Shown: positions 13,731-38,853, numbered from the stretch's first letter. The stretch is DNA of 64,000 nt from an uncultured Gammaproteobacteria bacterium (GCA_963834755.1 CAWICQ010000001.1:59566-123565), one strand, 5' to 3'. Program-made: numbers and translations. Notes: generated by a model from the sequence alone, not told the origin.

Positions 13731-14468
13731 CTATGGCGCCGACACGGCGCAATCGAACGGCAGCAACGCATGCAACCACGGGGCGTGGCCAGCAGCGAGC
13801 CAGGGCCCCGCCAACGTCAGCATGGCGCTTGCGAGCAACAGGCTTCCAGCGGCGTTGCGCATGAATCGCGGGGCCTTCGCGAATGCAAGCCGCTGCGCGC
13901 CGAACGCGCCGAGCATCAATGCGGGCACCGTGCCGAGTCCGAATGCCGCCATCGTCGCTGCGCCACGCAGGGGATCGAGCGAAAGCGTCGCGACGATCAG
14001 CACGGTATAGACGAAGCCGCACGGCATCCAGCCCCATAGCATTCCGAACGCAGTCGCGCGCGGAAAGGTCGACACCGGCAGAAGCCGTCGTCCGAGCGGT
14101 GCGATTCCGGCCCAGATCCGATGCGCAGCTCCGGCGCCAGGATTTCGCAGCACACCGAATGCAACCAGCGCGCCGACTAGGAAAGCGCCAGCGGTTGCGG
14201 TGCGCAATGCGGTGCGCACGTGATCGTTGTCAAGCCAGCCGATCGCCGCACCAGCGAGGCCACTGAAAAGGAGGCCGGCCAGCGTGTAGGAAAGAACACG
14301 GCCGAACTGATAACCCGCGAGGAGATCGACGCGCGGCCGGCCATCGCTGCGGCGCGTGGTTACCGTTCCGAGCGCGGCCGTGATCCCGCCGCACATGACC
14401 AGGCAATGTCCGCTGGCGGCGAGCCCGAGCAGCAACGCGGCGCCGATCGTCAGAGCGCCGCCGCTCAT
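13731..14468 (-). CDS. TauE/SafE/DsbD_2-type membrane protein of cco clusters
   Basis: GHCLVMCGG, YQFGRVLSY, WGWMPCGFVY, FGLGTVP; last gene of the ccoGHIS operon. Confidence 0.85.
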   Translation of the reverse strand: MSGGALTIGAALLLGLAASGHCLVMCGGITAALGTVTTRRSDGRPRVDLLAGYQFGRVLSYTLAGLLFSGLAGAAIGWLDNDHVRTALRTATAGAFLVGALVAFGVLRNPGAGAAHRIWAGIAPLGRRLLPVSTFPRATAFGMLWGWMPCGFVYTVLIVATLSLDPLRGAATMAAFGLGTVPALMLGAFGAQRLAFAKAPRFMRNAAGSLLLASAMLTLAGPWLAAGHAPWLHALLPFDCAVSAP

Positions 14469-14620
14469 GGCGGCGACTCCTTCTCATCGTCGGTCAGCGG
14501 CATCAGCGCGGGCGTTTCCAGATCGTCGAACTGCGAATGATCGATCGCCCAGAACAGCGCGGCGACTCCGGCGACGAGCAGCACGATGCTGAGCGGAATC
14601 AGTACAAGAATGATGTTCAC
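14465..14620 (-). CDS. ccoS: cbb3 oxidase maturation protein CcoS/FixS
   Basis: VNIILVLIPLS...FWAIDHSQFDDLE; GTG overlaps the ccoI stop. Confidence 0.9.
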   Translation of the reverse strand: MNIILVLIPLSIVLLVAGVAALFWAIDHSQFDDLETPALMPLTDDEKESPP

Positions 14621-17031
14621 GCGATCGCCTCCGCGAGCCGCGGCGTATCGTCGCGCGTCGCCTGGCGCGCACGCGGCACGTCGATGCGCAACGAATTGAG
14701 GACGACGATAAGCGAGCTCGCCGACATCGCAATCGCGGCGAGCCACGGCGGGACAAAGCCCAGCGCCGCGAGCGGCACGGCGCCGATGTTGTAGACCAGC
14801 GCCCAGTCGAGATTCTGCGCGAGCACCCGGCGCATGCGTACCGCGACCGCGCGCGCACGAGGCAATTCGTCGAAGCGATCGGCCGCGAGCACGAGACCGC
14901 TGGCCGCCTGGGCGAGCGCCGCTCCGCTCGACAACGCGATCGAAACATCGGCTGCGGCCAGCACCGGCGCATCGTTCACGCCGTCGCCGATCATCGCGAC
15001 GACGTGTCCCTCGGCGCGTAGGCGTTCGATATGCGCAAGCTTGTCGGCCGGCGTCGCGTTCGCCTTCCATGCGCCCGCCGCGAGTTCTGCGGCGGCTTCG
15101 GCAACGCGCGCACTCGTGTCGCCGCTCAGGATCTCGGTCGACGCACCGCTTTCGCGCAAGGCTGCCAAAGCGGGCGCAGCTCCGTCGCGTGGCCGCTCGC
15201 GCATCGTGAATTCGGCGACGACGCCATGGTCGTCCGCAAGGACCAGACCATCGCGCGCATTGTCGCCGGGTATCGCGAAATTCGAGCGCCCGAAACGGTA
15301 CGTGACTCCATCGACGATGCCGGAAACTCCGGCTCCGGCCGCGTGGCGTCGATCCATGACGACGGGCAGCGGCATGTCGCCGGCCGCCTCGCGCACGGCG
15401 GCGCCGAGTGGATGCGCGCTGCCCTGCTCGAGCGCAGCGGCCACGGCGAGCGCGGCAAACGGGTCGCCGCGGCGGACCAGCAGGTCGCCGCTCGTGATCT
15501 CCGGATGGGTCAGCGTGCCGGTTTTGTCGAAAACGAAACGGTCGGCGCGCGCGAGCACATCGAGCGCATCGGCGTCGACGACGAGCACACCGCGGCGCGC
15601 GAGCACGGCGACCGCGCGCGTCAGCGCGGCGGGCACGGCGAGCGCGAACGCGCACGGACAGCTCACGACCAGCACGGATACCGCAGCGGCGAATGCGCGC
15701 GAGGGATCGACGAAGCTCCAGCCGACGCCCGCGATCAGCGCGAAGGCAAGCACGCGCAACACGAAATGCCGCGCGCGACGATCCGCTTCGTGCACCAGTT
15801 TGGGTTTGCCGCTCGCGGCGCGCGTCACCATGCGCACGATGTCGGCCAGCACCGTGTCGGCACCGACGCGTTCGACACGTACTTCGACCGGGCCATCGAG
15901 GACGAGACTGCCTGCGATCAGCGCATCGCCGCTGCAACGTCGCAATGGCGTCGATTCGCCGGTCAAGAGCGATTCGTCGACGCTGCAGGCACCGTCGATC
16001 AGCAAACCGTCGGCCGGCACCGCCGCGCCCGCGGGGATGCGCACGCGATCGCCGGGTACCAGCTCGTGCACGCCGACTTGCTCGCTGCCGCTCGCAGTCA
16101 GGCGTTCGGCGGTGGCCGGCTGCAGGCGCGCGAGCGCATCGACGAGATCGGCGGTGCGGTGGCGCGCGCGCATCTCGACATAGCGCGCGCCGAGCAGGAA
16201 GAAGACGAACATGCTCACCGAATCGAAATAGATGTCGCGGCCGTGCGCGAGCGTCTCGACCAGGCTCGCGGTATAGATCAGCGCGATCGCGAGCGCGATC
16301 GGCGTGTCCATCGAAAGATGACGCGCCTTCCACGAACGCCACGCGCCGGCGAAGAACGGCCTCGCCGAATAGAAGACGACCGGCGCGGCGACGAGGAAGC
16401 CGAGCCAGCGGAAGAAATCGCGCGTCGTCGCTTCGATGCCGTCGAAGGTGCCGGCGTACAGCGCGACGGCGTACATCATTGCCTGCATCGTGCCGAGGCC
16501 GGCGACGACGAGACGCTTCAGCGCATCGCGATCCTCGCGCAAGCGCGAAGAATCCAGCGCGGCGGCTTCGAGCGGCTGCGGCGTGTAGCCAAGCTGCGCG
16601 AGTCGGCCCATCAAATCGCAGAGACGCGCCGCGTTTGGATCGAACACCAGGCGCACACGCCGCGCCGGTGCGTTGACCGCCACCTCGCGCACCCCGGCGC
16701 TGCGGCCGAGCGTGCGTTCGATCAGCCAGGCGCACGCCGAGCAACGCAGACCCTCGACGAGAAAAACAATTTCCGCGCGATCGCTCGCGTGCGATCGCAG
16801 ATGCAGACGTTGTAACGCGGGACGATCCCATGCCGAGAAATCCGCGCTCGCCGCGGGGCGCGTCGCGGGCCCGGTGCGCAGGCGATAGTAGTCGCCCAGG
16901 CCGAGCCCGGCGATCCATTCGACGGCGGCGCGGCAGCCCTGACAACAGACCGGCTCACGTTCGCCTCCGACCGATGCAAGGATCGCGACGTCGTCCGGCA
17001 CAGGCTCGCCGCAGTGGAAGCACCGCTTCAC
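14617..17031 (-). CDS. ccoI: Cu-translocating P1B-ATPase CcoI/FixI
   Basis: CFHC...CCQGC N-terminus, CSAC HMA domain, TGES, CPC, DKTGT, GDGVND. Confidence 0.92.
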   Translation of the reverse strand: MKRCFHCGEPVPDDVAILASVGGEREPVCCQGCRAAVEWIAGLGLGDYYRLRTGPATRPAASADFSAWDRPALQRLHLRSHASDRAEIVFLVEGLRCSACAWLIERTLGRSAGVREVAVNAPARRVRLVFDPNAARLCDLMGRLAQLGYTPQPLEAAALDSSRLREDRDALKRLVVAGLGTMQAMMYAVALYAGTFDGIEATTRDFFRWLGFLVAAPVVFYSARPFFAGAWRSWKARHLSMDTPIALAIALIYTASLVETLAHGRDIYFDSVSMFVFFLLGARYVEMRARHRTADLVDALARLQPATAERLTASGSEQVGVHELVPGDRVRIPAGAAVPADGLLIDGACSVDESLLTGESTPLRRCSGDALIAGSLVLDGPVEVRVERVGADTVLADIVRMVTRAASGKPKLVHEADRRARHFVLRVLAFALIAGVGWSFVDPSRAFAAAVSVLVVSCPCAFALAVPAALTRAVAVLARRGVLVVDADALDVLARADRFVFDKTGTLTHPEITSGDLLVRRGDPFAALAVAAALEQGSAHPLGAAVREAAGDMPLPVVMDRRHAAGAGVSGIVDGVTYRFGRSNFAIPGDNARDGLVLADDHGVVAEFTMRERPRDGAAPALAALRESGASTEILSGDTSARVAEAAAELAAGAWKANATPADKLAHIERLRAEGHVVAMIGDGVNDAPVLAAADVSIALSSGAALAQAASGLVLAADRFDELPRARAVAVRMRRVLAQNLDWALVYNIGAVPLAALGFVPPWLAAIAMSASSLIVVLNSLRIDVPRARQATRDDTPRLAEAIA

Positions 17032-17032
17032 T

Positions 17033-17194
17033 TCAGTGCGGCAGCTTGTGCGTCTGCGTGTCGGCATTCGCGATGTAGGCATCGGGCAGGCTCATCGCCA
17101 CGATCGCCAGCGTGAGGGCGCCGGACACGCCGCCGGTGAGCAGGAAGATCAGCAGCCAGACTTCGGGCACGCGATACCAGGATGTCTTCTTCAT
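17033..17194 (-). CDS. Short CcoH/FixH-like membrane protein (53 aa)
   Basis: W(Y)RVPEVWLLIF N-terminus at the ccoH position between ccoG and ccoI. Confidence 0.65.
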   Translation of the reverse strand: MKKTSWYRVPEVWLLIFLLTGGVSGALTLAIVAMSLPDAYIANADTQTHKLPH

Positions 17195-18606
17195 GGGAGC
17201 TCCGGAGCAAAGAAGCGCGTCGTCGTGCGGACCGATTCCGCACGCGCGACATCGCCGTGATTGTGGTCGGGTGTTTCGACGAATTCGAGCGTCGCATCGC
17301 GACGACCGTGGACCGCGCCGGCGGGCGCGCGCAGCGTCAAGGGAATCGAAGCGACCGCGCCGCCTTCGATTTCGATGCGGTGCGCGCCGACGATCGAGTA
17401 GATCGGGTCCGCGACGCGCGCTTCGAGCTCGATGCTGCGCTCGCTCTTGTTGACGATCTTGGCGGTGTAGCTGTTCTCGATGCTGCCCTCCGGCCCGGCG
17501 TGCCACAGCGCATTGCGATCGCGAATGATTTCGGCGAGCAGCATGCTTCGATGCGTGACGCTCCAGACGAAACCGGAAAAGAGCGTGAGCAGCAGCGAGG
17601 CGTAGACGAGTGTGCGTGGCCGGAGTACACGCATGGGCCGGCCGTCGCGCGCATTTTCGGTTGTGTAGCGGATCAGTCCTTTCGGATATGCCATCTTGTC
17701 CATGACGACGTCGCACGCGTCGATGCAGGCGGCGCACGCAATGCAGCCCACCTGAAGTCCGTTGCGAATGTCGATGCCGGTGGGACAGACCTGCACGCAG
17801 GCGAGGCAGTCGATGCAGTCGCCAAGTCCGGCCGAGCCGCGTTCGACGCTCTTGCGACGACTGCCGCGCGGTTCGCCGCGTGCTTCGTCGTAGCTGATGA
17901 TCAGCGTGTCACGATCGAACATCGCACCCTGGAATCGCGCGTACGGGCACATGTATTTGCAGACCTGCTCGCGCAGGTAGCCGGCGTTGCCGTAGGTCGC
18001 GAACGCGTAGAAGAGGATCCAGAACGTTTCCCAACCACCCACCTTGAGACGCGACATTTCGCCGGCAAGCTCGTGTATCGGCGTGAAAAACCCGACGAAC
18101 GTGAAGCCCGTCCAGAGCGCAAACGCGATCCACAGGAATTGCTTGAGCGATTTCCGCGCGAGTTTCGCGCCGTTCCAAGGTGCAGCGTCGAGCTTCATGC
18201 GCCGGTTGCGATCGCCTTCGATCTTGCGCTCGATCCACAGGAACACTTCGGTCCACACGGTCTGCGGGCATGCGTAACCGCACCACAGCCTTCCGGCGAG
18301 CGCGGTGAAGAAAAACAGCGACAGCCCGGCCATGACCAGCAGCCAGGTCAGATAAAAGAAATCCTGTGGCCAGAAGGTCAGGCCGAAGACATGGAATTTG
18401 CGCGCGGGAAGATCGAACAGGACGAGCTGATGCCCGTTCCACGACAGCCACGGAAACGCATAGAACATGCCGAGCAGCCAGAACACTGCCGCGATACGCA
18501 GACGCTGGAAGCGCCCGTCGATCTCGCGTGGATAAACCTTCGGCTGCTTCGCGTAGAGCGCGCCGTCATCGCCCTCGACCAGCGCCAATGGAATGGTTTT
18601 GGTCAT
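17191..18606 (-). CDS. ccoG: cbb3 accessory ferredoxin-like protein CcoG/FixG
   Basis: WCGYACPQTVW, CKYMCPY, CIDCLACVQVCPTGIDIR, CIACAACIDAC. Confidence 0.95.
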   Translation of the reverse strand: MTKTIPLALVEGDDGALYAKQPKVYPREIDGRFQRLRIAAVFWLLGMFYAFPWLSWNGHQLVLFDLPARKFHVFGLTFWPQDFFYLTWLLVMAGLSLFFFTALAGRLWCGYACPQTVWTEVFLWIERKIEGDRNRRMKLDAAPWNGAKLARKSLKQFLWIAFALWTGFTFVGFFTPIHELAGEMSRLKVGGWETFWILFYAFATYGNAGYLREQVCKYMCPYARFQGAMFDRDTLIISYDEARGEPRGSRRKSVERGSAGLGDCIDCLACVQVCPTGIDIRNGLQVGCIACAACIDACDVVMDKMAYPKGLIRYTTENARDGRPMRVLRPRTLVYASLLLTLFSGFVWSVTHRSMLLAEIIRDRNALWHAGPEGSIENSYTAKIVNKSERSIELEARVADPIYSIVGAHRIEIEGGAVASIPLTLRAPAGAVHGRRDATLEFVETPDHNHGDVARAESVRTTTRFFAPELP

Positions 18607-18905
18607 TGCACATCGCGAGCGGTCGGACCATCGCTCACCGGCGCGGTCGAAAGCAGCGCGGTAAAAGAACTTGACGCGAACGTGCAGGCCCAGAACATGA
18701 AGAATCCGATCGTGTAGCCCGCCTCGCGCGAGATCGACACGTGCGGCCAGGTCATCGCCGCGAGTTCCACGGGATCGACGATCGCGAAGAACACCATCGT
18801 CGCCACGCCAGCAGCGAAGAACGATGGCCACGCCACGGCGCCGAAGCGCGCGGCCAGCGGTACGCGCGCGGACTTCGGCTTCGATCGGGCGGAATCCGGC
18901 TTCAT
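18603..18905 (-). CDS. Small membrane protein between ccoP and ccoG
   Basis: Two TM helices (WPSFFAAG...DP...GFFMFW); overlapping start and stop with both neighbours. Confidence 0.7.
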   Translation of the reverse strand: MKPDSARSKPKSARVPLAARFGAVAWPSFFAAGVATMVFFAIVDPVELAAMTWPHVSISREAGYTIGFFMFWACTFASSSFTALLSTAPVSDGPTARDVQ

Positions 18906-19810
18906 GGCGAACGCTGGCTGTCCGGCGGTAGTTTGTTTGCCGATTGCGCGATGACCCACGCGGCGACCAGACGAATGCGATCAGCGCCGAGCGACTTGTC
19001 CCACGCCGGCATCTGGCCGTTGCGTCCGTTGCGCACGGATGCTTCGATCGAAGCGAGATCGCCGCCGTAAAGCCACACATCGTCCGTGAGATTCGGCGCG
19101 CCGATCACCTGGTTGCCTTTGCCGTCCGGCCCGTGGCATGCGATGCACATGGTCATGAACTGCGCCTTGCCGGCGTCGGCTTTGGCCGCGTCGTGCGCTT
19201 TGCCAGACAACGAGAGCACGTACTCGGCGACGTTCTCAACGCCGGTATCGCCGAGCGCAGCGCCCCACGGCGGCATCACTCCGGTGCGACCGTTCGTGAT
19301 CGTCGCGACGATCGTGTCGGATGTGCTGCCGTACAACCAGTCGTCGTCGGTGAGGTTCGGGAAGCCGGGTCCGCCGCGGGCGGCCGAGCCGTGGCAGGCG
19401 ACGCAGTTGTTGGCGAACACGTTGTGTCCGATCTCGGTCGCCTTGGGATCGCGACTCAGCGCTTCGATCGGCCGATTGCGGAATTCGGCGAAGATGGCGT
19501 CGAGCTTGGCGTTGGCCGCTGCGACGTCGCTGTCGTGTTCCTTCGCCGATGTCCAGCCGGTGACGCCGGGGAATGCACCAAGTCCTGGATACACGACCAG
19601 GTAACCGATTCCGAACAGGATGCTGCCGACGAAGAGGCCCACCCACCAGAGCGGTAACGGCTTGTTGTATTCGGTGAGGTCTTCGTCCCAGACGTGGCCG
19701 GTGGTCTTGTCGGGCGAGCTCTTGCGCGCGTTCGCGAACAACAGCCACGCCGAACCGATGATGTTGGCGACGACGATCACGCTGATGAAAGCGCTCCAGA
19801 ACGATGTCAT
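18902..19810 (-). CDS. ccoP: cbb3-type cytochrome c oxidase subunit III
   Basis: GHVWDEDLTEY, two CxxCH (CVACH, CIACH), NLTDDDWLYG. Confidence 0.95.
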   Translation of the reverse strand: MTSFWSAFISVIVVANIIGSAWLLFANARKSSPDKTTGHVWDEDLTEYNKPLPLWWVGLFVGSILFGIGYLVVYPGLGAFPGVTGWTSAKEHDSDVAAANAKLDAIFAEFRNRPIEALSRDPKATEIGHNVFANNCVACHGSAARGGPGFPNLTDDDWLYGSTSDTIVATITNGRTGVMPPWGAALGDTGVENVAEYVLSLSGKAHDAAKADAGKAQFMTMCIACHGPDGKGNQVIGAPNLTDDVWLYGGDLASIEASVRNGRNGQMPAWDKSLGADRIRLVAAWVIAQSANKLPPDSQRSP

Positions 19811-19956
19811 GGCGTGCGCTCCGCGCGCCGAACATCGTCCACCAGCGCGAGCGCGGCGGCTTCCTCGAAACGTTGCCGCCGACCGGGCGCATAGGCCCAG
19901 GCGAAGAGTCCCAGGAACAGGACCAGCAATACGGCGATGAAGATCCCGGCGATCAT
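19807..19956 (-). CDS. ccoQ: cbb3 oxidase subunit CcoQ
   Basis: Manual translation MIAGIFIAVLLVLFLGLFAWAYAPGRRQRFEEAAAL; lies between ccoO and ccoP. Confidence 0.85.
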   Translation of the reverse strand: MIAGIFIAVLLVLFLGLFAWAYAPGRRQRFEEAAALALVDDVRRAERTP

Positions 19957-19959
19957 CGT

Positions 19960-20565
19960 CTACTCCTTGGGTGCGAACTTGCCGAGGCTTTGCAGATACG
20001 CGACGAGCGCGTCGAGCTCGGTCTTGTTGTCGACTGCGGCCTTGACCGATTTCAGATCGTCGTCCGTGTATGGATCGCCAATCGTGCGCAGCGCGCGCAT
20101 GTGCGATTCGACGGTCGCGGCATCAAGCTTGTTCTGCGCCAGCCACGGATAACCAGGCATGTTGGATTCGGGCACCACGTCGCGCGCATTCATCAGGTGC
20201 ACGCGGTGCCAGTCGTCGCTGTAGCGGCCGCCGACGCGCGCGAGATCGGGTCCCGTGCGCTTGCTGCCCCACAGGAACGGATGGTCGTAGACCGATTCGC
20301 CGGCGACCGAATAGTGACCGTAGCGCTGCGTCTCGAACGACAGCGTGCGGATCATCTGCGAATGACAGTTGTAGCAGCCTTCGCGCACGTACACGTCGCG
20401 CCCGGCAAGCTCGAGCGCCGCGGGCGGCTTGAGGCCCGGCACGGGCGTAATCGCCTGCGCCTGGTACATCAGCGGGACGATCTCGGCGAGGCCGCCGAAG
20501 CTGATCGCGACGGCGATCAGCACGGCAAGGAGACCGACGTTCTTCTCGATCGTGGCGTGGTTCAC
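19960..20565 (-). CDS. ccoO: cbb3 oxidase subunit II
   Basis: [28 protein letters not shown]. Confidence 0.95.
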
Positions 20566-20574
20566 GGCAAGTCC

Positions 20575-21999
20575 TCAGGCGGCGACCGCGGTCGGAATGA
20601 GCACGGGTTCTGGTGTGCGCGACGTGGCCCAGGTCTTCCAGGTGTTCCAGGCCATCATCAGCATGCCGCTGAGATAGAGCAGGCCGCCGACGAGGCGCAC
20701 GTAGTAGAACGGATAGGTCTGTTTGAGCGCTTCGACGAACGTGTAGGTCAGCGTGCCGTCCGGATTCGTCGCTCGCCACATCAGGCCCTGCATGATGCCG
20801 GCCGTCCACATCGCCGCGATGTAGAGCACGACGCCGATCGTCGCGACCCAGAAGTGCGTTTCGACCAGGCGCGTCGAATACATCTGCTTGGTGCCGCGCA
20901 AACGCGGGATCAGGCAATAGAGCGAACCGATGGTGATGAAGCCGACCCAGCCGAGCGCGCCGGAGTGCACGTGGCCGATCGTCCAGTCGGTGTAGTGCGA
21001 AAGCGAATTGACGGTCTTGATCGACATCATCGGCCCTTCGAAGGTCGACATGCCGTAGAACGACAGCGCGACGATCATGAATTTCAGGACCGGATCCGTG
21101 CGCAGCTTGTGCCACGCGCCCGACAGCGTGAGGATGCCGTTGAGCATGCCGCCCCATGACGGCGCGAGCAGGATCAGCGAAAACACCATGCCGAGCGACT
21201 GCGCCCAGTCCGGCAGCGCGGTGTAGTGCAGATGATGCGGGCCCGCCCACATGTAGATCGCGATCAGTGCCCAGAAGTGGACGACCGAAAGGCGATACGA
21301 ATAGATCGGACGCTCGGCTTGCTTCGGCACGAAGTAGTACATCATTCCGAGGAATCCAGCGGTCAGGAAGAAACCGACCGCGTTGTGGCCGTACCACCAC
21401 TCCACCATCGCGTCGACGGCGCCGGAGTAGACGATGTACGACTTCGTAAGCGACACCGGAATCGCGACGTTGTTGACGACGTGCAGAACGGCGATCGTGA
21501 TGATGTACGCGCCGTAGAACCAGTTGGCGACGTAGATGTGCTTGACGCGTCGCGTCGCCAGCGTGCCGAAGAAGACGACGGCGAACGCGATCCAGACAAT
21601 CGTGATTAGAATGTCGATGAACCACTCGGGCTCGGCGTATTCCTTGTTCTGCTGGATGCCGAGCGGCAGCGTGATCGCGACGAGCACGATCACGGTCTGC
21701 CATCCCCAGAATGTAAACGCGGCGAGCTTGTCGCTGAACAGGCGCACTTGAGACGTGCGCTGCACGACGTAGTACGCCGTCGCGAACAGACCGCAGCCGC
21801 CGAACGCGAAGATCACCGCATTCGTGTGCAGCGGGCGCAGGCGGCTGTAGGTCAGCCATGGAATGTCGAAATTGAGCGCCGGCCACGCGAGCTGCGCCGC
21901 GATCAGCGCGCCGACGAGCATGCCGACGATGCCCCAGAAGATGGTTGCGATCGTGAACTGGCGTACGACGCGATCGTTGTAGGTCTCGACGGCTTGCAT
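20575..21999 (-). CDS. ccoN: cbb3 oxidase catalytic subunit I
   Basis: [38 protein letters not shown]. Confidence 0.97.
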
Positions 22000-22051: not shown

Positions 22052-22065
22052 TTGATCCTGATCAA
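22052..22065. promoter_or_regulatory. FNR/FixK box upstream of ccoN
   Basis: Perfect TTGAT-CCTG-ATCAA, centred about 59 nt upstream of the ccoN ATG. Confidence 0.9.
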
Positions 22066-23135: not shown

Positions 23136-23149
23136 CTGATCCTGATCAA
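23136..23149. promoter_or_regulatory. FNR/FixK box (1 mismatch) for the leftward USP
   Basis: CTGAT-CCTG-ATCAA, centred about 61 nt from the ATG at 23081. Confidence 0.75.
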
Positions 23150-28253: not shown

Positions 28254-28263
28254 GCGCGCCGCT

Positions 28264-30261: not shown

Positions 30262-31649
30262 TTCGACGCGCTTCGGAAATGCTCGAGCAGCACGGCAAGC
30301 GCGCAGGACGCCAGTCTCGCCAGCACGTCGTCCGAGCGGCTGGTGAGCACGATCGGAACGCGTGCGCCGAGCACGATCCCCGCCGAGTCGGCGCCGGAAA
30401 GGTAGATGAGCTGCTTGGCCAGCATATTGCCCGACTCGAGGTCGGGCACAACGAGTATGTCGGCGTCGCCGGCGACGGGCGAAACAATCTGTTTCGTCTC
30501 AGCGGCTGCGCGCGAGATCGCGTTGTCGAACGCGAGCGGCCCGTCGACGAGACCACCGACGATCTGGCCGCGATCGACCATCTTGCACAGCGCCGCGGCC
30601 TCGACCGTCGAGTGAATCTTCGGGTTGATCGTCTCGACCGCCGACAAGATCGCCACCTTCGGCAATCGAATCGCGATCGCGTGCGCGAGATCGATCGCGT
30701 TCTGGACGATGTCGCGCTTGTCCATCAGGTCGGGATAGATATTGATCGCGGCGTCGGTGAGCAGCAACGGTTTGGGATATGTCGGGACGTCGAGCGCGAA
30801 AACGTGACTCATGCGCCGTTCCGTGCGCAAACCCGAAGCGGCGTCGACCACGGCCGCCATCAGCTCGTCGGTGTGCAGCGCGCCCTTCATCAGTGCGCGG
30901 ACCGCACCGCTGCGCGCGAGATCGACGGCGCGCGCCGCGGCCGCGTGGCTGTGCGGCGTGTCGAGGATCTCGACCCCATCGAGCGAAAGTCCTGCCGCAG
31001 CGGCCGTCTTGCGGATCTTCGCTTCGGGTCCGACCAGCACCGGCACGATCAACAGCTTGCTCCTCGCTTCGAGAGCGCCGGTCAGCGACAGCTCGTCGCA
31101 CGGATGCACAACCGCCATGCGCAACGGTTCCAGCGATCGCGTCGCGTCGATCAGCTGGCGATAGCGCAGGCCGCGCTCGTGCAGGTGCACCTCCGCAAGC
31201 GCGGTGCGCGGCCGTCGCACTTTCGCGGTCGGTGCGATGACGCTGGCGACGCCCTCGACGACGACATCACCTGCCTGATTGCGACACACGCAATCCAGCG
31301 TGACACGGTTGCCCGGCATGTGCTTCTCGCGCACGCTGACGCGCACCGTGACCGTATCGCCGACGCCGACCGGTTTGCGGAAATGCAGGGTCTGGTCGAC
31401 ATAGATCGTGCCCGGTCCCGGCAGTTCCGTACCCAACACGGCCGATATCAGCGCGCCGCCCCACATTCCGTGCGCGATGACTTTGTGGAACACATCGGAG
31501 CGGGCGAAGTTCTCGTCGACATGTTCGGGATTGACGTCGCCGGACAATACCGCGAACAACTCGATGTCGTCCTTGCGCAAGGTGCGCGTGATCTCGGCCT
31601 GATCGCCAACCTTGAGCTCGTCGTAGGTCTTGTTCTCGATGTACTGCAT
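30258..31649 (-). CDS. Bifunctional MaoC-type enoyl-CoA hydratase / phosphate acyltransferase
   Basis: N-terminal SGDVNPEH..AHGMW hot-dog domain; C-terminal MKGALHT, DGPLAFDNA, SRSD. Confidence 0.92.
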   Translation of the reverse strand: MQYIENKTYDELKVGDQAEITRTLRKDDIELFAVLSGDVNPEHVDENFARSDVFHKVIAHGMWGGALISAVLGTELPGPGTIYVDQTLHFRKPVGVGDTVTVRVSVREKHMPGNRVTLDCVCRNQAGDVVVEGVASVIAPTAKVRRPRTALAEVHLHERGLRYRQLIDATRSLEPLRMAVVHPCDELSLTGALEARSKLLIVPVLVGPEAKIRKTAAAAGLSLDGVEILDTPHSHAAAARAVDLARSGAVRALMKGALHTDELMAAVVDAASGLRTERRMSHVFALDVPTYPKPLLLTDAAINIYPDLMDKRDIVQNAIDLAHAIAIRLPKVAILSAVETINPKIHSTVEAAALCKMVDRGQIVGGLVDGPLAFDNAISRAAAETKQIVSPVAGDADILVVPDLESGNMLAKQLIYLSGADSAGIVLGARVPIVLTSRSDDVLARLASCALAVLLEHFRSASK

Positions 31650-31723: not shown

Positions 31724-31737
31724 TTGACCAGGATCAA
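31724..31737. promoter_or_regulatory. FNR/FixK box in the divergent MaoC-pta / MBL promoter
   Basis: TTGAC-CAGG-ATCAA, placed between ATG 31649 (-) and ATG 31803 (+). Confidence 0.8.
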
Positions 31738-31802
31738 GCGTCGCGGCGGCCGACCATCTAGAGTGCGCAGGCCGGGCGCGTCGCTGGCGGGGGAGGATGC
31801 GG

Positions 31803-33203
31803 ATGATCGCAATCACATGCCACGGCGCCGCCCGGCAAGTCACAGGGTCCTGTCACCTCCTCGAATGCGCCTCGCAGCGAATGCTGATCGACTGCGGCCT
31901 CTTTCAGGGCAGCGATGCGGTCGAGAACGGCAATGCGGCGGAATTCGGCTTCGATCCCGCGTCGATCGACTTCGTTCTACTGACCCACGCGCACCTCGAT
32001 CATTGCGGTCGCATACCGTTGTTGGTCAAACGAGGATTTCGTGGCGAAATCATCGCGACCGCTCCGACGCGCGAACTGGCGCGGCTCGTGATGAGCGACG
32101 CCGCGTCGCTGCAGCAAGAGGACGCGCGCATGCGCTCGCGGCGACTGCATCGCGGCGGAAATGCCGATTCGGTGCCGCTCTACACGATCGACGATGCGTT
32201 CCATGCGATGGATTTCTTCGGCCGCAAGGCCGAGTACGGACGCGATATCGACCTCGCGCCGGACCTGCGCGTTCGCTTCGTCGATGCCGGACACATGCTC
32301 GGATCCGCTTGCGTGCTCGTCGATGCGGGAACCGGCGCTTCGCGCCGGCGCATCCTGTTCTCGGGCGACATCGGCAATCCGGGCCGGCCGCTGCTGCGCA
32401 TTGCCGAGCCGCCGCCGGCGGCGGATGTCGTGGTGATGGAAGCGACGTACGGCGATCGCAACCATCGATCGATGTCGGCCAGTGTCGATGAGCTCGTCGC
32501 CGCGATCAAGGACAGGCTCGACAGCGGCGGCAATGTGGTCATCCCGACGTTCGCGCTCGAACGCGCGCAGGAAGTCATCTTTCATCTCGCCAATGCCGTG
32601 CGCGCAGGCACGCTGCCGCGCAACTTGCGCGTCTTCCTCGATTCGCCGATGGCGATCTCGGCGACTTCGATCTTTGCGCGCTATCCCGATTGTCTGGGCG
32701 AAGAATCACGCGCGCGCATTGCCGCCGGCAGCGACCCGTTCGGGCTGCCGACGCTGCGCTTCACGCGCGATGTCGCCGAGTCGATGGCGATCAACAATAT
32801 CGACGGCGGAGCGGTGATCCTTGCGGGCTCCGGCATGTGCACCGGCGGCCGTGTGCTCCATCACCTCAAGCACAATCTCTGGCGCGAGAATGCCGGCGTC
32901 GTATTCGTCGGCTACGCCGCCGAAGGGACACCCGCGCGCCGCATCATCGATGGCGCCGACTACGTGCGCATTCTCGGCGAGGAAATCCGCGTTCGCGCGA
33001 AGATATGGACGATCAATGGCTTCTCGGCGCACGCGGGTCAGGACGATCTGCTGCGCTGGATCGCGCACACCGGCGCACCGCGCAAGGTCCTGCTGGTCCA
33101 TGGCGAGCCGGCGCGAGGCATGCAACCGCTTGCCGAACGCATTCGGCAGAGCGGACTCTCCGTCGAGATGCCCGCCCAGGGCGAACGCCTGACGTTCGAC
33201 TGA
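31803..33203 (+). CDS. MBL-fold beta-CASP ribonuclease (RNA-metabolising)
   Basis: DCG, THAHLDHCG, AGHMLGS, FSGDIG, FSAHAG, LVHGE. Confidence 0.92.
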   Translation: MIAITCHGAARQVTGSCHLLECASQRMLIDCGLFQGSDAVENGNAAEFGFDPASIDFVLLTHAHLDHCGRIPLLVKRGFRGEIIATAPTRELARLVMSDAASLQQEDARMRSRRLHRGGNADSVPLYTIDDAFHAMDFFGRKAEYGRDIDLAPDLRVRFVDAGHMLGSACVLVDAGTGASRRRILFSGDIGNPGRPLLRIAEPPPAADVVVMEATYGDRNHRSMSASVDELVAAIKDRLDSGGNVVIPTFALERAQEVIFHLANAVRAGTLPRNLRVFLDSPMAISATSIFARYPDCLGEESRARIAAGSDPFGLPTLRFTRDVAESMAINNIDGGAVILAGSGMCTGGRVLHHLKHNLWRENAGVVFVGYAAEGTPARRIIDGADYVRILGEEIRVRAKIWTINGFSAHAGQDDLLRWIAHTGAPRKVLLVHGEPARGMQPLAERIRQSGLSVEMPAQGERLTFD

Positions 33204-33237: not shown

Positions 33238-33251
33238 TTGACGCAGATCAG
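33238..33251. promoter_or_regulatory. FNR/FixK-like box (2 mismatches) upstream of USP-adh
   Basis: TTGAC-GCAG-ATCAG in the intergenic gap. Confidence 0.55.
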
Positions 33252-33338: not shown

Positions 33339-34169
33339 ATGCAGGACGTTCTGATCTATGTGCACAGCCTCAAGCAGCCTTGGGATCCCGTGGTCGAATA
33401 CGGTGGACGACTGGCTGCGCTGCTCGGCGCCTCGGTCACTGGTGCCTACGTCTATCCATGGCCGCAATATTCGCCGCCGCCGTTCAGCTCGCCTGACTTC
33501 ATCGCGCTCATCTTCCAGAATTCGCGTGCGCAGGAGGCTGCCGCGAAGGCGGCCGAGGAACCTTTCAAGCGCTGGGCGAAGTCGGTCGGCGTCCGCGATA
33601 CGACCTGGCACGTCGCGGAAGGGTACCTGCCGGATGCGCTTGCGCAGATCGGTACGTGGCACGATTTGCTCGTGCTCGAGCTCAATTCGGATGCGCCGTG
33701 GGGTTCGCCTTCGGATGTGGCGAGTCTGGTACTCGCGTCGCATCTGCCGACCGTCATAGTTCCTGGCATGCAGAAATTGAATGGCGCGCCGGGCTGCGTG
33801 CTGGTCGCATGGAACGGCGCCCCGGAATCGGTCCGCGCGATCCACGCGGCACTGCCGTTGCTCCAGCGCGCCAAGCGCGTGGTCATGTTGTGCGGCGAGC
33901 GACGCAACAGCTATCTCGAGATCACCTGGAAACCGCCGTTCGACATGAACGCCTACCTGCTCCGGCATGGCGTCAAGCTCGAATTTCGGAATCTCGAGGT
34001 GGACGATGAGCAGGCCGGCGCGGCGATTCTCGATGCCGCGTCGGAGCTCAAGGCCGAACTCATCGTCATGGGAGCCTACGGCCGAAATCGTTTCAGCGAG
34101 TGGGCGCTCGGCGGCGCGACGCGTCATGTGCTGAATCACACTCAGGTACCGGTCTTCATGCGTCATTGA
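33339..34169 (+). CDS. Tandem-domain universal stress protein
   Basis: LVAWNGAPESVRA, IVMGAYGRNRFSEWALGGATRHVL; paralogue of 22257-23081. Confidence 0.9.
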   Translation: MQDVLIYVHSLKQPWDPVVEYGGRLAALLGASVTGAYVYPWPQYSPPPFSSPDFIALIFQNSRAQEAAAKAAEEPFKRWAKSVGVRDTTWHVAEGYLPDALAQIGTWHDLLVLELNSDAPWGSPSDVASLVLASHLPTVIVPGMQKLNGAPGCVLVAWNGAPESVRAIHAALPLLQRAKRVVMLCGERRNSYLEITWKPPFDMNAYLLRHGVKLEFRNLEVDDEQAGAAILDAASELKAELIVMGAYGRNRFSEWALGGATRHVLNHTQVPVFMRH

Positions 34170-34217: not shown

Positions 34218-35201
34218 GTGCGTGCGATGGTGTCCATGGGAGCGGGGCTACCGCTTCGGTACCGGGAGTTGCCCGATCCGGCCCCGCGGCCGGACGAGGT
34301 TCGTCTGCGCATAGAAGCCTGCGGCGTCTGCCGGACCGATCTGCATGTCGTCGATCGGGAGTTGCCCGACACGCCCGCGCAAATCATCCCGGGACATGAA
34401 GTCGTCGGTGTTGTCGATGTGGTCGGCGCGAATGTCTCCGCCTTCTCGGTCGGCGACCGCGTCGGGGTTCCATGGCTTGGCTCGACGTGCGGTCATTGCG
34501 AATACTGCCACGCCGGTCGCGAAAACCTTTGCGATGCGCCGACGTTCACCGGCTACACGCGATCAGGCGGATTCGCCACGCACATCGTCGCGTGCGCCGA
34601 TTACTGCGTGCCGTTGCCGGCCGGCGTAGATCCCGTCGCGACCGCGCCACTTCTATGCGCCGGGCTGATCGGCTGGCGTTGCTTGCAGAAAACAGGAGAA
34701 GCGTTTCGCATCGGTTTGTACGGATTCGGCGCGGCGGCTCACATCGTCGCCCAGATCGCGCGATGGCAGCGTCGCGAGGTGTTCGCCTTCACGCGCGCGG
34801 GCGATCTCGAGACGCAGGCGTTCGCGCGATCGCTCGGAGCCGCCTGGGCGGGCGCTTCCGGCGATGCACCACCGGTTGCGCTCGATGCGGCGATCATTTT
34901 CGCACCGGTCGGATCGCTGGTCGTCGACGCGTTGCGCGCCGTGAAGAAGGGCGGCCGCGTCGTCTGCGGCGGCATCCACATGAGCGACATTCCTTCGTTT
35001 GGCTATCAGCTGCTGTGGCACGAGCGCGAGATCGTATCGGTCGCCAACTTGACACGCGCCGATGCGCACGAATTTTTCGCGGTCGCGCCGCGCGCGGGTA
35101 TCGTGGTCACGACCACGCGTTATACGCTCCAGGATGCGAATCGCGCTCTGACCGATTTGCGCAACGGAACGTTCGACGGAGCCGCGGTACTGGTTCCGTA
35201 A
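34218..35201 (+). CDS. Zn-dependent alcohol dehydrogenase (AdhP-like)
   Basis: CGVCRTD, GHEVVG, CGHCEYC...C, LCAG, GLYGFG. Confidence 0.92.
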   Translation: MRAMVSMGAGLPLRYRELPDPAPRPDEVRLRIEACGVCRTDLHVVDRELPDTPAQIIPGHEVVGVVDVVGANVSAFSVGDRVGVPWLGSTCGHCEYCHAGRENLCDAPTFTGYTRSGGFATHIVACADYCVPLPAGVDPVATAPLLCAGLIGWRCLQKTGEAFRIGLYGFGAAAHIVAQIARWQRREVFAFTRAGDLETQAFARSLGAAWAGASGDAPPVALDAAIIFAPVGSLVVDALRAVKKGGRVVCGGIHMSDIPSFGYQLLWHEREIVSVANLTRADAHEFFAVAPRAGIVVTTTRYTLQDANRALTDLRNGTFDGAAVLVP

Positions 35202-35220: not shown

Positions 35221-35236
35221 GTTACGAACCGTTACA
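35221..35236 (+). promoter_or_regulatory. Tandem direct repeat GTTACG-N4-GTTACA (K-box-like OmpR-family site)
   Basis: GTTAC at 35221 and 35231 with a weaker GTTGC at 35241 (10-bp period), 79 nt upstream of the FixK-like ATG. Confidence 0.7.
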
Positions 35237-35314
35237 AACGGTTGCTGCGGCGACGTCGAATTGTGAGCGTCGGCCGATAACGTCTCTTCCGCGAACCCGC
35301 GTTAGGAGACCGAC

Positions 35315-36037
35315 ATGAACATCGCATGCGCCGCCAGCAGAATCGAACCGGCCGTTGTCGCGGCGTCGGCACGCTTCAACAGCGCCGCCATCGATATCGA
35401 TCTGCTGCGTCAGCACGTCGAGGTGTTTCGCCGGAAGATATCGGCCGGTGAATACATCTATCGCGCGGGACAGCCGATGCAGGCCGTGTTTCTGGTCCAT
35501 GTCGGATCGCTCAAAACCTGCGAGCTCGCGACGGACGGCCGTGAACAGATCACCGGATTCCGCATGCGCGGCGATCTGGTCGGCGTGGAGTCGATCGGCC
35601 TTGCGACCTATGCGTGCGATGCGATTGCGCTCGAAGACTGCGAAGTCTGGGAATTGCCGTACCCGCCGGTCCTGAAGGCGTGCCTGGAGATTCCGGAATT
35701 GCACAACCGCTTCACGGCTGCCCTGGCGGAGGAGATCCGGCGCGATCGAAGCTGGATGCTTGCGCTCGGCACGTTGACCGCCGAGCAGCGCGTCGCCGCG
35801 TTCCTGATCGATGTCGCGGCCCGTTACGCGGAGCTCGGTTTCAGCGACCGTCATTTCCTGTTGCGTATGAGCCGCGCCGACATGGCGAATTTCCTCGCGC
35901 TGAAACACGAGACCGTCAGCCGGGCGCTGTCGCGTCTGCAGGACCTGTGCTTTATTGCGGTCCAGCGCCGCGAGGTCAAGGTGATGGACATGCCGGAGCT
36001 GCGCCGGCTGGCCGCGGGTTCTGCGACGATCCACTGA
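35315..36037 (+). CDS. Crp/Fnr-family regulator, FixK-type (no N-terminal Fe-S Cys cluster)
   Basis: DGREQITGF, SRADMANFL, recognition helix ETVSR; only one Cys in the N-terminal region. Confidence 0.9.
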   Translation: MNIACAASRIEPAVVAASARFNSAAIDIDLLRQHVEVFRRKISAGEYIYRAGQPMQAVFLVHVGSLKTCELATDGREQITGFRMRGDLVGVESIGLATYACDAIALEDCEVWELPYPPVLKACLEIPELHNRFTAALAEEIRRDRSWMLALGTLTAEQRVAAFLIDVAARYAELGFSDRHFLLRMSRADMANFLALKHETVSRALSRLQDLCFIAVQRREVKVMDMPELRRLAAGSATIH

Positions 36038-36049: not shown

Positions 36050-38107
36050 TCAGGCGGCTCGGTCGGCGTCCAGCGTTTTGCGCAAGGCGGCCGCTAATTG
36101 CTCGCGGCGATAGGGCTTGCGTAGCACATCGGATTCGATCGATGCCGACGGCTCGCTTGCTTCGGCAGCGTGTTCATAACCGGACGTGAGCAATACCGGC
36201 AGATGAGGTCGCAATACCCTCGCTTCGCGGACGAGGTCGAAGCCGGTCATGCCGCTGCCGAGCACGATGTCGGAAAACAGCAGTTCGATATCGGTGTGCT
36301 GCCTGAGAAGCGCGAGCGCGTTCTCGGCATCGCTTGCTTCATAGGTCGTGTAGCCGAGTGAACGCAGGAAGGCGAGGGCGATTCCGCGCACTTCGGCTTC
36401 GTCTTCGACGACGAGAATGGTTTCTTTTCCTTCGCGCGGCGGTATTGCGTCGCGGACGGGATGTGCGAGGTCCGCGTTGGAGCCCGCGGGCAGATAAAGA
36501 TCGACGCGCGTCCCTTGGCCGACGTGGCTTTCAATGGCGACCTGACCGCCCGACTGCCGGGCAAATCCGTACACCATGCTGAGGCCAAGTCCGGCGCCTT
36601 TGCCGGCGTCCTTGGTCGTGAAGAAGGGTTCCAGCGCGCGCGCACACACTTCCGGCGCCATGCCGGTGCCGGTGTCGACGACGCTGAACACGACGTAGGC
36701 GCCGGGCGGCAGATCGATACGATCCGTCCCGGATTCCAGGACGTGCTCGCGGACGCCGATGTTAAGAGCACCGCCATTCGGCATCGCGTCGCGCGCGTTG
36801 AGAGCGAGGTTGATGAGCGCCGCCTCGAGTTCGCCCGGATCGGCAAACACCGGAGTCTTGTCTGCCTCGCCCAGTTCGACCGAAACGGCGATGTGCTCGC
36901 CCAGGGTGCGCCGAAGCATGCCTTGCAGATCGGAAAGAACCTGGCCAGGCAGGATGGGCCGCGGGACCAGGTGTCGTCTGCGCGCGAATGCCAGCAGCTT
37001 GCGTGTGAGTACAGCACCGCGGTCGACGGCACGCAACGCGCTGTCGATCGTTTCGCCCAGCGCGGGGCGGTCCGCAAGCTCCGCTTCGAGAATCTGAAGA
37101 TTGCCCGAGATCACGGTCAGCAGATTGTTGAAATCGTGCGCGATGCCGCCGGTGAGTTGTCCCACTGCGTCCAATCGTTGGGAATGCGCAAGCTGTTCCT
37201 CGCTGCGACTGCGTTGAGCGGCCGCGGCAAGAATATTTCCGACCGATTGCAGGAAATGCAGGGCATCGCGGTCGAAGTGATCGCGTTTGCCGGACAACGC
37301 GAGCAACACGCCCATCGGCTGGTAGCGATCGAGCAGCAAGACGGCGGCCGCATCGCGAAAACCGGCGTCGCCGAGCGCGGCGACGAGGGGCGCGAACTCG
37401 CTGCCGATCAGCTGTTTCAGCGTGATGCCCGCGGGCGCGTCGCGCTCGACGCGGGCGAATAGCGCGCTCTGCGGAATCGTCCGCGGCAGTGTTTCGCGAA
37501 GACTGCGCGGAAGGCCGGTTTCCGCGTGCACGCGCAGATCGTCGCTGCGCGGGCCCGCAAGCAGAACCACGGCAGCACGGATCGCCAACGCCGACGCCAC
37601 GAGCGCGGGCATCTTCTCAACGGCCGCTTCGTAGTTCGAAGATTCGAGCGCAAGGCGACCGATCTGCGCGGCGAACGTGTCGTGTCGCGCGCGCGTCAAA
37701 GCCTGTCGCACGCGATGCGTTTCGGAGATGTCGCGAATCGAAGCGGCGAATAATATGCTTTTCGACGACTGGATCGGACTGAGCCCGATCTCCACCGGAA
37801 AGGGTTGCCCGTTGCGGCGAACGCCGGTCAACTCATAGCCCGCGCCCATCGGGCGGACGCGTGGGTTTGCCATGAATCCGTTGCGGTGGCCGACATGAAC
37901 CGCGCGCACGCTTTCCGGCAGCAGGACTTCCACGGGCGATCCCGCGAGTTCTCCGGCCTCGTATCCAAACAGGCGTTCCGCCTGCGGATTCGCCAGGACG
38001 ATGCAACCATCGCGATTGACCACGATCATCGCATCGGGCGCCGTCTCGAACAGCGCTTCGAACAGCGCCGAGTCGATCGGTTCGTCGGATCCGGCCGGAG
38101 GCGTCAT
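36050..38107 (-). CDS. Hybrid sensor histidine kinase PAS-GAF-HisKA-HATPase-REC (FixL-like PAS)
   Basis: PAS ETAPDAMIV...FGY...LLPESVRAVH...GVRRNGQPFP; H-box GIAHDFNNLL; NARDAM; DTGTGM; FFTTK; REC EDE...FSD...KP. Confidence 0.92.
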   Translation of the reverse strand: MTPPAGSDEPIDSALFEALFETAPDAMIVVNRDGCIVLANPQAERLFGYEAGELAGSPVEVLLPESVRAVHVGHRNGFMANPRVRPMGAGYELTGVRRNGQPFPVEIGLSPIQSSKSILFAASIRDISETHRVRQALTRARHDTFAAQIGRLALESSNYEAAVEKMPALVASALAIRAAVVLLAGPRSDDLRVHAETGLPRSLRETLPRTIPQSALFARVERDAPAGITLKQLIGSEFAPLVAALGDAGFRDAAAVLLLDRYQPMGVLLALSGKRDHFDRDALHFLQSVGNILAAAAQRSRSEEQLAHSQRLDAVGQLTGGIAHDFNNLLTVISGNLQILEAELADRPALGETIDSALRAVDRGAVLTRKLLAFARRRHLVPRPILPGQVLSDLQGMLRRTLGEHIAVSVELGEADKTPVFADPGELEAALINLALNARDAMPNGGALNIGVREHVLESGTDRIDLPPGAYVVFSVVDTGTGMAPEVCARALEPFFTTKDAGKGAGLGLSMVYGFARQSGGQVAIESHVGQGTRVDLYLPAGSNADLAHPVRDAIPPREGKETILVVEDEAEVRGIALAFLRSLGYTTYEASDAENALALLRQHTDIELLFSDIVLGSGMTGFDLVREARVLRPHLPVLLTSGYEHAAEASEPSASIESDVLRKPYRREQLAAALRKTLDADRAA

Positions 38108-38853
38108 TCCCGTCGAACCTGCGCGGCAAACAGGTACCCGGCTCCGCGCACGGACTTGATGATTTCCGGCCGCGCGGGATCAGTCTCGATCTTGCGCCGC
38201 AGCCGGCTGATCTGCACGTCGATCGCCCGGTCGAATGGACCGGCGTCGCGCCCGTGCAGGTGCGTCATCAAATCGTCACGCGACAACACGCGATTCGGAT
38301 GCTCCACGAGAATCTTCAGAAGCGCGAATTCGCCACTCGTCAGATCCACCGGCGCGCCATGCCGATCGATCAAGGAATACGCTCTTGCGTCGAGGCGGAA
38401 ACCCGAGAAAACCAGTGTCGAACCATCCTGCGCCGAACTTGCATCGCGTTCGCTCGTGCGACGCAGTACCGTGCGAACGCGCGCAAGCAGCTCGCGCAGA
38501 TCGAAGGGTTTGGTCACGTAGTCATCGGCACCGAGCTCGAGTCCGACGACGCGATCCACGGATTCCCCGCGACCCGTCACGATGATGACGGAACCGCGCC
38601 ATTGCTGGCGCAGATAACGCGTCAGATCGAAACCGTCCTCGCCCGGCAAACCCAGATCGAGCAGGATCAGATCGACAGAAATCTCCCTGGCGAGTGCCTC
38701 TCGCATCGCAGCGCCGTCGGTTGCCGTGCTGACGCGAAAGCCCTGCGCCGTGAAATAGCGCACGACCAGCGCGGCGATATCGGGATCATCGTCGACGATC
38801 AGCAGATGATGGTTGCAGACTTGGTTGGCGGAGGTGGAGGTCGAATCGTGCAT
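38104..38853 (-). CDS. OmpR/PhoB-family response regulator (FxkR-like)
   Basis: VDDD, LLDLGLP, GADDYVTKPF, FDRAIDVQISRLRRKIE; stop overlaps the kinase start. Confidence 0.93.
   Translation of the reverse strand: MHDSTSTSANQVCNHHLLIVDDDPDIAALVVRYFTAQGFRVSTATDGAAMREALAREISVDLILLDLGLPGEDGFDLTRYLRQQWRGSVIIVTGRGESVDRVVGLELGADDYVTKPFDLRELLARVRTVLRRTSERDASSAQDGSTLVFSGFRLDARAYSLIDRHGAPVDLTSGEFALLKILVEHPNRVLSRDDLMTHLHGRDAGPFDRAIDVQISRLRRKIETDPARPEIIKSVRGAGYLFAAQVRRE

Follow-up and report, generated by a model that had tools for sequence, protein, structure and literature searches.

A probable low-oxygen gene cluster under a predicted hFixL-FxkR-FixK cascade in a Rhodanobacteraceae chromosome

We analysed a stretch of 64,000 nt from an uncultured Gammaproteobacteria bacterium (GCA_963834755.1, CAWICQ010000001.1:59566-123565; the window hereafter), and within it the 25-kb gene cluster at positions 13731-38853, counted from the window's first letter. 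The host is a soil-type gammaproteobacterium of the family Rhodanobacteraceae. We propose that this is a chromosomal low-oxygen cluster under a three-step hFixL-FxkR-FixK cascade encoded at its right end, and we give this reading a probability of about 0.8.

At the mechanistic level, a soluble hybrid kinase with a FixL-type haem PAS domain would become active as oxygen drops. It would then phosphorylate an FxkR-like regulator that binds a K-box, a site recognised by its conservation, and so presumably turns on fixK. Finally, a FixK protein lacking the cysteine cluster, and thus itself blind to oxygen, would bind anaeroboxes centred at -41.5 and activate eight class II promoters in the cluster. 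The predicted cluster targets are a cbb3 oxidase and its assembly genes, five universal stress protein (USP) genes, a BON-domain protein, pta-ackA, an alcohol dehydrogenase (ADH), a beta-CASP nuclease, a Pat-like acetyltransferase, and a pair made of a phosphorylase-like protein and a phosphoribosyl pyrophosphate (PRPP) synthase paralogue. FixK would also act on at least nine promoters elsewhere, including those of hemN, nirK, and cytochrome c peroxidase. The expected outcome at low oxygen would be high-affinity respiration, substrate-level ATP synthesis, redox balancing, and dormancy-type protection.

The regulatory genes and the K-box

Open reading frames (ORFs) were picked by third-position G+C, because the G+C content is 64%, and named with Pfam and NCBIfam, which gave 22 called genes in the cluster. 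The regulatory features at its right end are the following:

35221-35245, plus strand: K-box, with half-sites GTTACG, GTTACA and GTTGC separated by AACC and AACG, 70-94 nt upstream of the fixK ATG
35315-36037, plus strand: FixK-like Crp/Fnr regulator, 240 amino acids (Pfam)
36050-38107, minus strand: hFixL-like hybrid histidine kinase, 685 amino acids (Pfam)
38104-38853, minus strand: FxkR-like OmpR-family response regulator, 249 amino acids (Pfam Response_reg and Trans_reg_C)

The cluster FixK carries the recognition helix ETVSR (E--SR) and lacks the N-terminal CX2CX5C motif; its best NCBIfam matches, Fnr and FixK, were both under the cut-off. It is the sole E--SR protein among six Crp/Fnr-family genes of the assembly, the other five having CRP/Clp-type or other helices. 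An HTH_Crp_2 family search and a tblastn search with a relative's FNR found neither a second E--SR regulator nor a Cys-cluster FNR in the 14 contigs, and a canonical FNR/Anr regulator with an N-terminal cysteine cluster is represented neither by the cluster FixK nor by any other candidate in the assembly. Since no other E--SR Crp/Fnr protein was found, the cluster FixK is the only visible box reader in this 95%-complete genome, and it appears, as judged from its sequence, to be the organism's only anaerobox regulator, with hemN and nirK included. No anaerobox was found before fixK itself. The initial annotation had put sensor, regulator, and targets into one module, and for the regulatory genes this was borne out: the kinase and the response regulator adjoin the single E--SR protein.

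The kinase presents, in order, an N-terminal FixL-type PAS domain, a GAF-like linker, HisKA, HATPase, and a C-terminal receiver, with no membrane segment evident. Its PAS domain matched the solved FixL haem domains (E ~1e-17), with His71 aligned with the proximal haem histidine. H71, H324 (the H-box), and D613 (the receiver aspartate) were invariant in 18 orthologues. When compared to hFixL9 of Rhizobium pRL9, the kinase and receiver were 47% identical and the haem PAS 25%. The close relatives by database name came from Dyella, Frateuria, and Dokdonella, which assigns the window to Rhodanobacteraceae. A scan of genome contigs with the kinase as query returned mostly generic kinase-domain matches, and it supplied the betaproteobacterial and Hyphomicrobiaceae loci. 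The kinase and regulator genes overlap by 4 nt and thus form an operon. The regulator is 50% identical to FxkR9 of pRL9 over its full length.

The K-box reads GTTACGAACCGTTACAAACGGTTGC and presents three direct half-sites with a 10-bp period. No other intergenic perfect GTTAC-N5-GTTAC occurs in the 4.05-Mb assembly. We compared it with related genomes, numbered with the prefix G (G000 being the source assembly; genus set, n = 41). GTTAC direct repeats with the 10-bp period were kept upstream of fixK in seven relatives (G035, G024, G036, G006, G018, G050, and G060), and a looser K-box was found in three betaproteobacterial loci (Methylibium, Variovorax, and an uncultured betaproteobacterium). 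In the pRL9 region, fetched for comparison, the K-box reads GTTACAAACTGTTACC. The reported FxkR site, GTTACA-N4-GTTACA, equals that of the window in sequence and spacing (PMC4999443, PMC7888657). In Rhizobium etli and R. leguminosarum, hFixL signals to the OmpR-type FxkR, which binds the K-box and turns on fixK (PMC4999443 citing Zamorano-Sanchez et al. 2012; Rutten et al. 2021, PMC7888657).

Anaeroboxes and the predicted regulon

We scanned for boxes of the TTGAT-N4-ATCAA type with the motif TTGATNNNNATCAA, counting mismatches. The seven cluster boxes and their mismatch counts were as initially annotated, and they serve eight transcription units (distances are from the box centre to the ATG; offsets locate the start of a hexamer past the box):

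22052-22065: perfect box, ccoN operon; 59.5 nt from the ATG at 21999; TAACCT at offset 22
23136-23149: one mismatch, minus-strand tandem USP; 61.5 nt from the ATG at 23081; TAGGCT at offset 22
23173-23186: two mismatches, plus-strand USP; 65.5 nt from the ATG at 23245; TAGGTT at offset 22
23761-23774: perfect box, bon-usp; 64.5 nt from the ATG at 23832
29050-29063: two mismatches, between ackA and the GNAT gene; 61.5 nt from the GNAT ATG at 28995
31724-31737: one mismatch, between the divergent metallo-beta-lactamase-fold (mbl) gene (66.5 nt) and pta (81.5 nt); TAGAGT at offset 21, on the mbl side only
33238-33251: two mismatches, tandem USP-adh; 94.5 nt from the ATG at 33339; TAGCGT at offset 22

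For analyses with at most one mismatch, the window contained seven boxes against 0.99 +/- 1.07 in dinucleotide-preserving shuffles, and none of 100 shuffles reached seven. Six of the seven lie inside the cluster, four of them intergenic. The seventh, at 63360, is the sole such match in the backbone and falls within a coding frame. Of two-mismatch matches the backbone has 16, mostly coding, so that this class is near noise. The whole assembly (4.05 Mb) contained 104 boxes by the same scan (seven perfect and 97 with one mismatch). About 30 of them are non-coding, which gives an expectation of about 0.2 per 25-kb cluster; four were seen here.

Related loci were also rich in boxes, with 0.04-0.28 boxes of at most one mismatch per kb (0.09-0.28 in eight of ten loci) vs. 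0.026 per kb genome-wide here. Their boxes precede the orthologues of ccoN, bon, usp, adh, mbl, and gnat by 57-90 nt. For example, the orthologous box in G006 is 63.5 nt before ccoN, bon is also preceded by a box in G035 and G018, and so is the gnat/mbl pair in G024.

The spacing of 59-95 nt between box and start proposed earlier came to 59.5-94.5 nt once four over-long ORF calls had been trimmed to homologue-supported starts (pta 31649, tandem USP 23081, USP 23245, and GNAT 28995). Class II FNR sites are centred at -41.5. Among 17 promoters, seven have a TAnnnT hexamer that starts 21-22 nt past the box, five of these seven being cluster promoters, against a genome background of 0.0016 per position. 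If this hexamer covers positions -12 to -7, the centre of the box is at -41.5, in agreement with the FNR/FixK-type class II sites of the initial annotation.

The -10 regions of the boxes at 22052, 23136, 23173, 31724, and 33238 share the form CTAG(G/A/C)nT (CTAACCT, CTAGGCT, CTAGGTT, CTAGAGT, and CTAGCGT, respectively). A CTAGGGT at C11:69738, on another contig of the assembly, resembles this form, and the likeness exceeds the plain TAnnnT requirement. The shared extended -10 may be a preferred promoter form for FixK or for a sigma factor.

Apart from the regulatory genes, the cluster contains:

13731-14468, minus strand: DsbD_2 (Pfam)
14617-17082, minus strand: ccoI, P-type ATPase (Pfam)
~17191-18720, minus strand: ccoG (Pfam)
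18902-19810, minus strand: ccoP (Pfam)
19960-20565, minus strand: ccoO (Pfam)
20575-21999, minus strand: ccoN (Pfam)
22257-23081, minus strand: tandem USP (Pfam Usp; start from homologues)
23245-23682, plus strand: USP (Pfam)
23832-24488, plus strand: BON-domain protein (Pfam)
24510-24974, plus strand: USP (Pfam)
25001-25915, minus strand: PRPP-synthase paralogue (Pfam, NCBIfam PRK07199)
25912 to ~27400, minus strand: archaeal-type thymidine/AMP-phosphorylase-like protein (Pfam, NCBIfam)
27435-28253, minus strand: third tandem USP, recognised by paralogy only (tblastn)
28264-28995, minus strand: Pat-like GNAT with a basic K/A/R-rich N-terminal tail (Pfam, NCBIfam)
29089-30261, minus strand: ackA, acetate kinase (Pfam, NCBIfam)
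30258-31649, minus strand: MaoC-pta, phosphate acetyl/butyryl transferase (Pfam, NCBIfam PRK08190)
31797-33203, plus strand: beta-CASP metallo-beta-lactamase-fold nuclease (Pfam; compare the 'metal-dependent RNase' BCAM0300 of the lxa locus, described below)
33339-34169, plus strand: tandem USP (Pfam)
34218-35201, plus strand: zinc alcohol dehydrogenase (Pfam)

The cbb3 oxidase and maturation genes (13731-21999, minus strand) encode the assembly's only cbb3 oxidase, ackA and pta are single-copy in the genome, and the cluster holds five of the six USP genes of the genome (all by tblastn). The GNAT, tandem USP, phosphorylase-like, and PRPP-synthase paralogue genes (25001-28995, minus strand) are probably an operon behind the box at 29050. 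The phosphorylase-like gene overlaps that of the PRPP-synthase paralogue, and the pair is also found in G061. Its product passes the PRK04350 cut-off and scores 446 bits with AMP_phos, under the AMP_phos cut-off; neither a ribose-1,5-bisphosphate isomerase nor a RuBisCO gene was found in the cluster. The tail of the Pat-like GNAT is about 70 amino acids long, Lys/Arg/Ala-rich, and histone H1/AlgP-like. Its length differs among orthologues, with alignments beginning at residues 9-86.

Outside the cluster there are at least nine boxes with equally good placement, which precede the following genes (distance from box centre to ATG):

hemN: two boxes, 41.5 and 94.5 nt
nirK: 74.5 nt
cytochrome c peroxidase: 92.5 nt
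a cytochrome c: 74.5 nt
P-type ATPase: 66.5 nt
copA-like ATPase: 63.5 nt
ferredoxin-NADP-reductase-like gene: 63.5 nt
hypothetical gene: 65.5 nt

Thus, the cluster is about half of the predicted regulon, and its description as self-contained had to be dropped. The hemN gene stands in tandem with a nirK fused to a C-terminal cytochrome c domain (G000:C12:413789-415422), with the two hemN boxes and the single nirK box. Since nirK is present and boxed beside hemN, the organism is likely a nitrite reducer with nirK under predicted FixK control. A second boxed group (G000:C11:61154-71100) includes the cation P-type ATPase (66.5 nt; compare BCAM0318 of the lxa locus), the ferredoxin-NADP-reductase-like flavoprotein (perfect box, 63.5 nt), and a secreted hypothetical protein (perfect box, 65.5 nt).

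Distribution and alternative readings

A FixK orthologue more than 57% identical was present in about 11 of the 41 genus genomes and absent from several assemblies that are 99-100% complete; most genus members carry a homologue about 35-40% identical to the cluster FixK. The trio of regulator, kinase, and fixK was kept in all seven related loci (7/7), with its USP, BON, GNAT, ADH, MBL, pta-ackA, and cco neighbours shuffled. The trio was also found with USP, BON, ADH, and MBL neighbours in Variovorax guangxiensis and in the uncultured betaproteobacterium, and alone in Methylibium. On a Variovorax boronicumulans plasmid (NZ_CP138497.1, 938 kb), the module lies at 558-588 kb beside IS21, ParAB, and VirB-type type IV secretion genes. 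There, the regulator-kinase pair is accompanied by six USPs, BON, adhP, GNAT, an MBL-fold hydrolase, and a phosphoketolase. These comparisons of synteny and orthologues show the patchy distribution among relatives for which the initial annotation had suggested a test, and they support its proposal that sensor, regulator, and targets move as a module, since the trio recurs with shuffled targets in other genomes and plasmids.

The features at the right border are:

from ~39529, with an rve fragment at 40171-40635: decayed, frameshifted IS3-family element with an orfA-like frame, outside the right border
40-43.5 kb: low-G+C patch (0.53-0.57) containing an HsdR N-terminal fragment at 41550-42062
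43647-43722: tRNA-Phe, 4.8 kb to the right of the cluster

We consider it unlikely that the stretch arrived recently as a mobile genomic island that inserted next to tRNA-Phe. The presence of the trio in a minority of the genus, the plasmid neighbourhood in Variovorax, and a tRNA-Phe past a decayed element and a low-G+C patch would all fit such an island. Moreover, in two genomes without the module (G005 and G025) the right-flank synteny stops exactly at tRNA-Phe. However, the G+C content of the cluster is 0.63-0.69 vs. a genome average of 0.64, no integrase was found among its genes with Pfam, and a search at the left border for the 3' end of tRNA-Phe as an att repeat gave only chance matches of 9-14 nt. 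In the congener G061, the same left (glycosyltransferase) and right (blaI/blaR) flanks enclose these genes in a rearranged order over 64 kb, and the cluster holds the genome's only cbb3 oxidase, ackA, and pta. Thus, 'island' is justified in the sense of a patchy distribution, and its mobile sense is unproven. The simplest reading is a variable chromosomal region by tRNA-Phe that has long been host to the module in part of the genus; also on the simplest reading, the module moves between lineages over longer times.

Two side observations concern these borders. A stretch at 38966-38999 resembles a tRNA 3' end, with about 14 of 17 bases common to tRNA-Phe. In G061 (C8:284-332 kb), the alignment is incomplete for ccoN, ccoI, the kinase, and the regulator (e.g., 253 of 474 residues), which suggests frameshifts or decay in that assembly.

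Several points weigh against the cascade proposed here. The FxkR orthology of the regulator is unproven by identity alone, because a class-wide search with it (E 1e-62) returned OmpR-like proteins 47-53% identical that were not separable from FxkR-like ones. For this reason we built a tree, where the regulator grouped with FxkR9 and with regulators adjoining the same kinase, apart from OmpR-like clades and from the genome's OmpR paralogue; the support of the FxkR9 clade was only moderate (94/84). The cluster FixK is 29% identical to FixK9b of pRL9. The kinase has a PAS domain and a GAF-like segment vs. two PAS domains in hFixL9, and Arg206 and Arg220 of FixL are replaced in its PAS domain. Regarding the boxes, the three with two mismatches (23173, 29050, and 33238) are statistically not sufficient alone, and they count by position only, because both the backbone and coding sequence contain many two-mismatch matches. 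The box at 31724 faces both mbl and pta, as initially annotated for a divergent pair, but the pta side is without a canonical -10. The assembly is 95.1% complete, and what is missing could contain an Fe-S FNR. Finally, for the window cascade the steps of haem binding, phosphotransfer, and DNA binding are predictions.

The replaced arginines bear on what the kinase senses, since in FixL R206 and R220 couple oxygen binding to the kinase. The kinase, with its GAF-like segment between the PAS and kinase domains, could instead respond to a ligand of that segment, to NO or CO, or to redox state, and the genes would then form a nitrosative- or redox-stress regulon and not a hypoxic one; nirK among the outside targets would suit this too. 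We regard this as decidedly unlikely: among solved structures the PAS domain is closest to the oxygen sensors FixL and DosP, the targets (cbb3, hemN, USPs, and pta-ackA) are a classic low-oxygen set, and the homologous rhizobial cascade responds to about 1% oxygen (PMC7888657).

The incomplete assembly bears on which protein reads the boxes. A canonical Fe-S FNR/Anr in the unassembled 5% could be the chief reader, with the cluster FixK in a minor, local role. In three relatives (G035, G050, and G060), a gene for a Cys-cluster FNR lies at a distance of a few kb from the trio, all trio-linked FixK orthologues being without the cluster, and the weaker homologue carried by most of the genus would also agree with this. 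On the other side, neither search found an FNR gene or fragment in the 14 contigs, and the cluster FixK has the full E--SR helix, which makes a hidden chief reader very unlikely. A weak tblastn match to the relative's FNR (C11:323471) belongs to a membrane protein with a fused cNMP-binding domain and is not an FNR. CRP/Clp was ruled out as the box reader: the genome's Clp-like protein has a CRP-type helix, and the boxes are of the TTGAT- and not the TGTGA-type.

We therefore retain the haem-kinase cascade acting through FixK. With no Fe-S FNR in the assembly, it would be the sole oxygen route to the anaerobox regulon, including hemN and nirK. Such a sole route would matter for denitrification control in this family of soil and groundwater bacteria.

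Comparison with known systems

The likeness to the lxa (low-oxygen-activated) locus and to rhizobial FixK regulons pointed out in the initial annotation was sustained, as the gene content matches both. The lxa locus of Burkholderia cenocepacia J2315 spans 50 kb and 50 genes (Sass et al. 2013, PMC3721108). It includes six USPs, BON-type 'phospholipid-binding' proteins, ADHs, acetate kinase, phosphate acetyl/butyryl transferase, and a metal-dependent RNase, and the Crp/Fnr gene BCAM0287 lies between the ADH gene BCAM0286 and the regulator/kinase pair BCAM0288/0289 (PMC3721108). An FNR-like motif is found at 17 of its intergenic points and at four loci elsewhere (PMC3721108).

The window cluster shares with lxa the grouping of USP, BON, ADH, ackA, phosphate acyltransferase, and metal-dependent RNase genes (BCAM0286-0300), the gene order adh, Crp/Fnr, two-component pair (BCAM0286-0289), and an FNR-like repeat at most intergenic points and a few outside loci, together with a patchy presence among relatives. 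Hsp20, polyhydroxyalkanoate (PHA) synthesis, class II ribonucleotide reductase, ribokinase, and transporters are particular to lxa; none of Hsp20, PHA synthase, class II ribonucleotide reductase, and ribokinase was found among the 22 called genes of the window cluster. In turn, the window cluster has the cbb3 oxidase, which lxa lacks, and the PRPP-synthase/nucleoside-phosphorylase pair in the 'pentose/nucleotide' slot. Moreover, BCAM0287 is called an FNR protein, and Burkholderia FNR proteins are said to keep the cysteine cluster (PMC4505428), whereas the window FixK is without it.

In the literature passages covered, BCAM0287, BCAM0288, and BCAM0289 are only listed, with no role assigned, and the lxa model of one review uses FixLJ-FixK. 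No Burkholderia homologue of the kinase sensor region appeared among the best 120 database matches. We predict that the window trio is orthologous to BCAM0287-0289, judging by gene order and annotation.

The control logic is that of rhizobia. The hFixL-FxkR-FixK cascade has been proposed to originate in an ancestor of the Rhizobiaceae (PMC4999443). As in rhizobia, there is a hybrid kinase with a FixL-type PAS and a receiver, an OmpR-family regulator, a K-box before a Cys-less fixK, anaeroboxes before the cbb3 operon and hemN, and adh beside the regulators. The set carried by pRL9 (fixNOQP, fixGHI, fixK, hfixL, hemN, fixK, fxkR, and adhP) parallels the window genes. The window differs in its gammaproteobacterial host, a third K-box half-site, an lxa-type target set, no link to nitrogen fixation, and no FnrN partner found.

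Two further systems use similar boxes. FixLJ-FixK (Bradyrhizobium, Sinorhizobium, Caulobacter, and Burkholderia dolosa) follows the same logic, from haem-PAS kinase to regulator to Cys-less FixK to TTGAT-N4-ATCAA; however, FixJ is LuxR/NarL-type with another binding site, and FixL is not a hybrid kinase. Pseudomonas aeruginosa Anr uses the same box and has overlapping targets (cbb3, hemN, USPs, ackA-pta, and adh, serving survival without oxygen; compare the review PMC12071387), but it senses oxygen directly with an Fe-S cluster, and its regulon is scattered and not clustered.

Our reading puts the hFixL-FxkR-FixK cascade and its K-box into Rhodanobacteraceae as well and, as a slightly degenerate version, into Variovorax and Methylibium, all outside the Alphaproteobacteria where it was described. 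This offers a concrete mechanism for switching on lxa-type loci. More tentatively, and at somewhat less than even odds, the lxa-type clusters of Beta- and Gammaproteobacteria could generally be switched on by an embedded hFixL-FxkR-FixK cascade via a K-box. If so, BCAM0288/0289 would be the FxkR/hFixL that turn on BCAM0287, and cascade and targets would travel together on plasmids and chromids as a single module. Altogether, the window cluster is of the same kind as the lxa locus with rhizobial control logic, and not a new kind of system.

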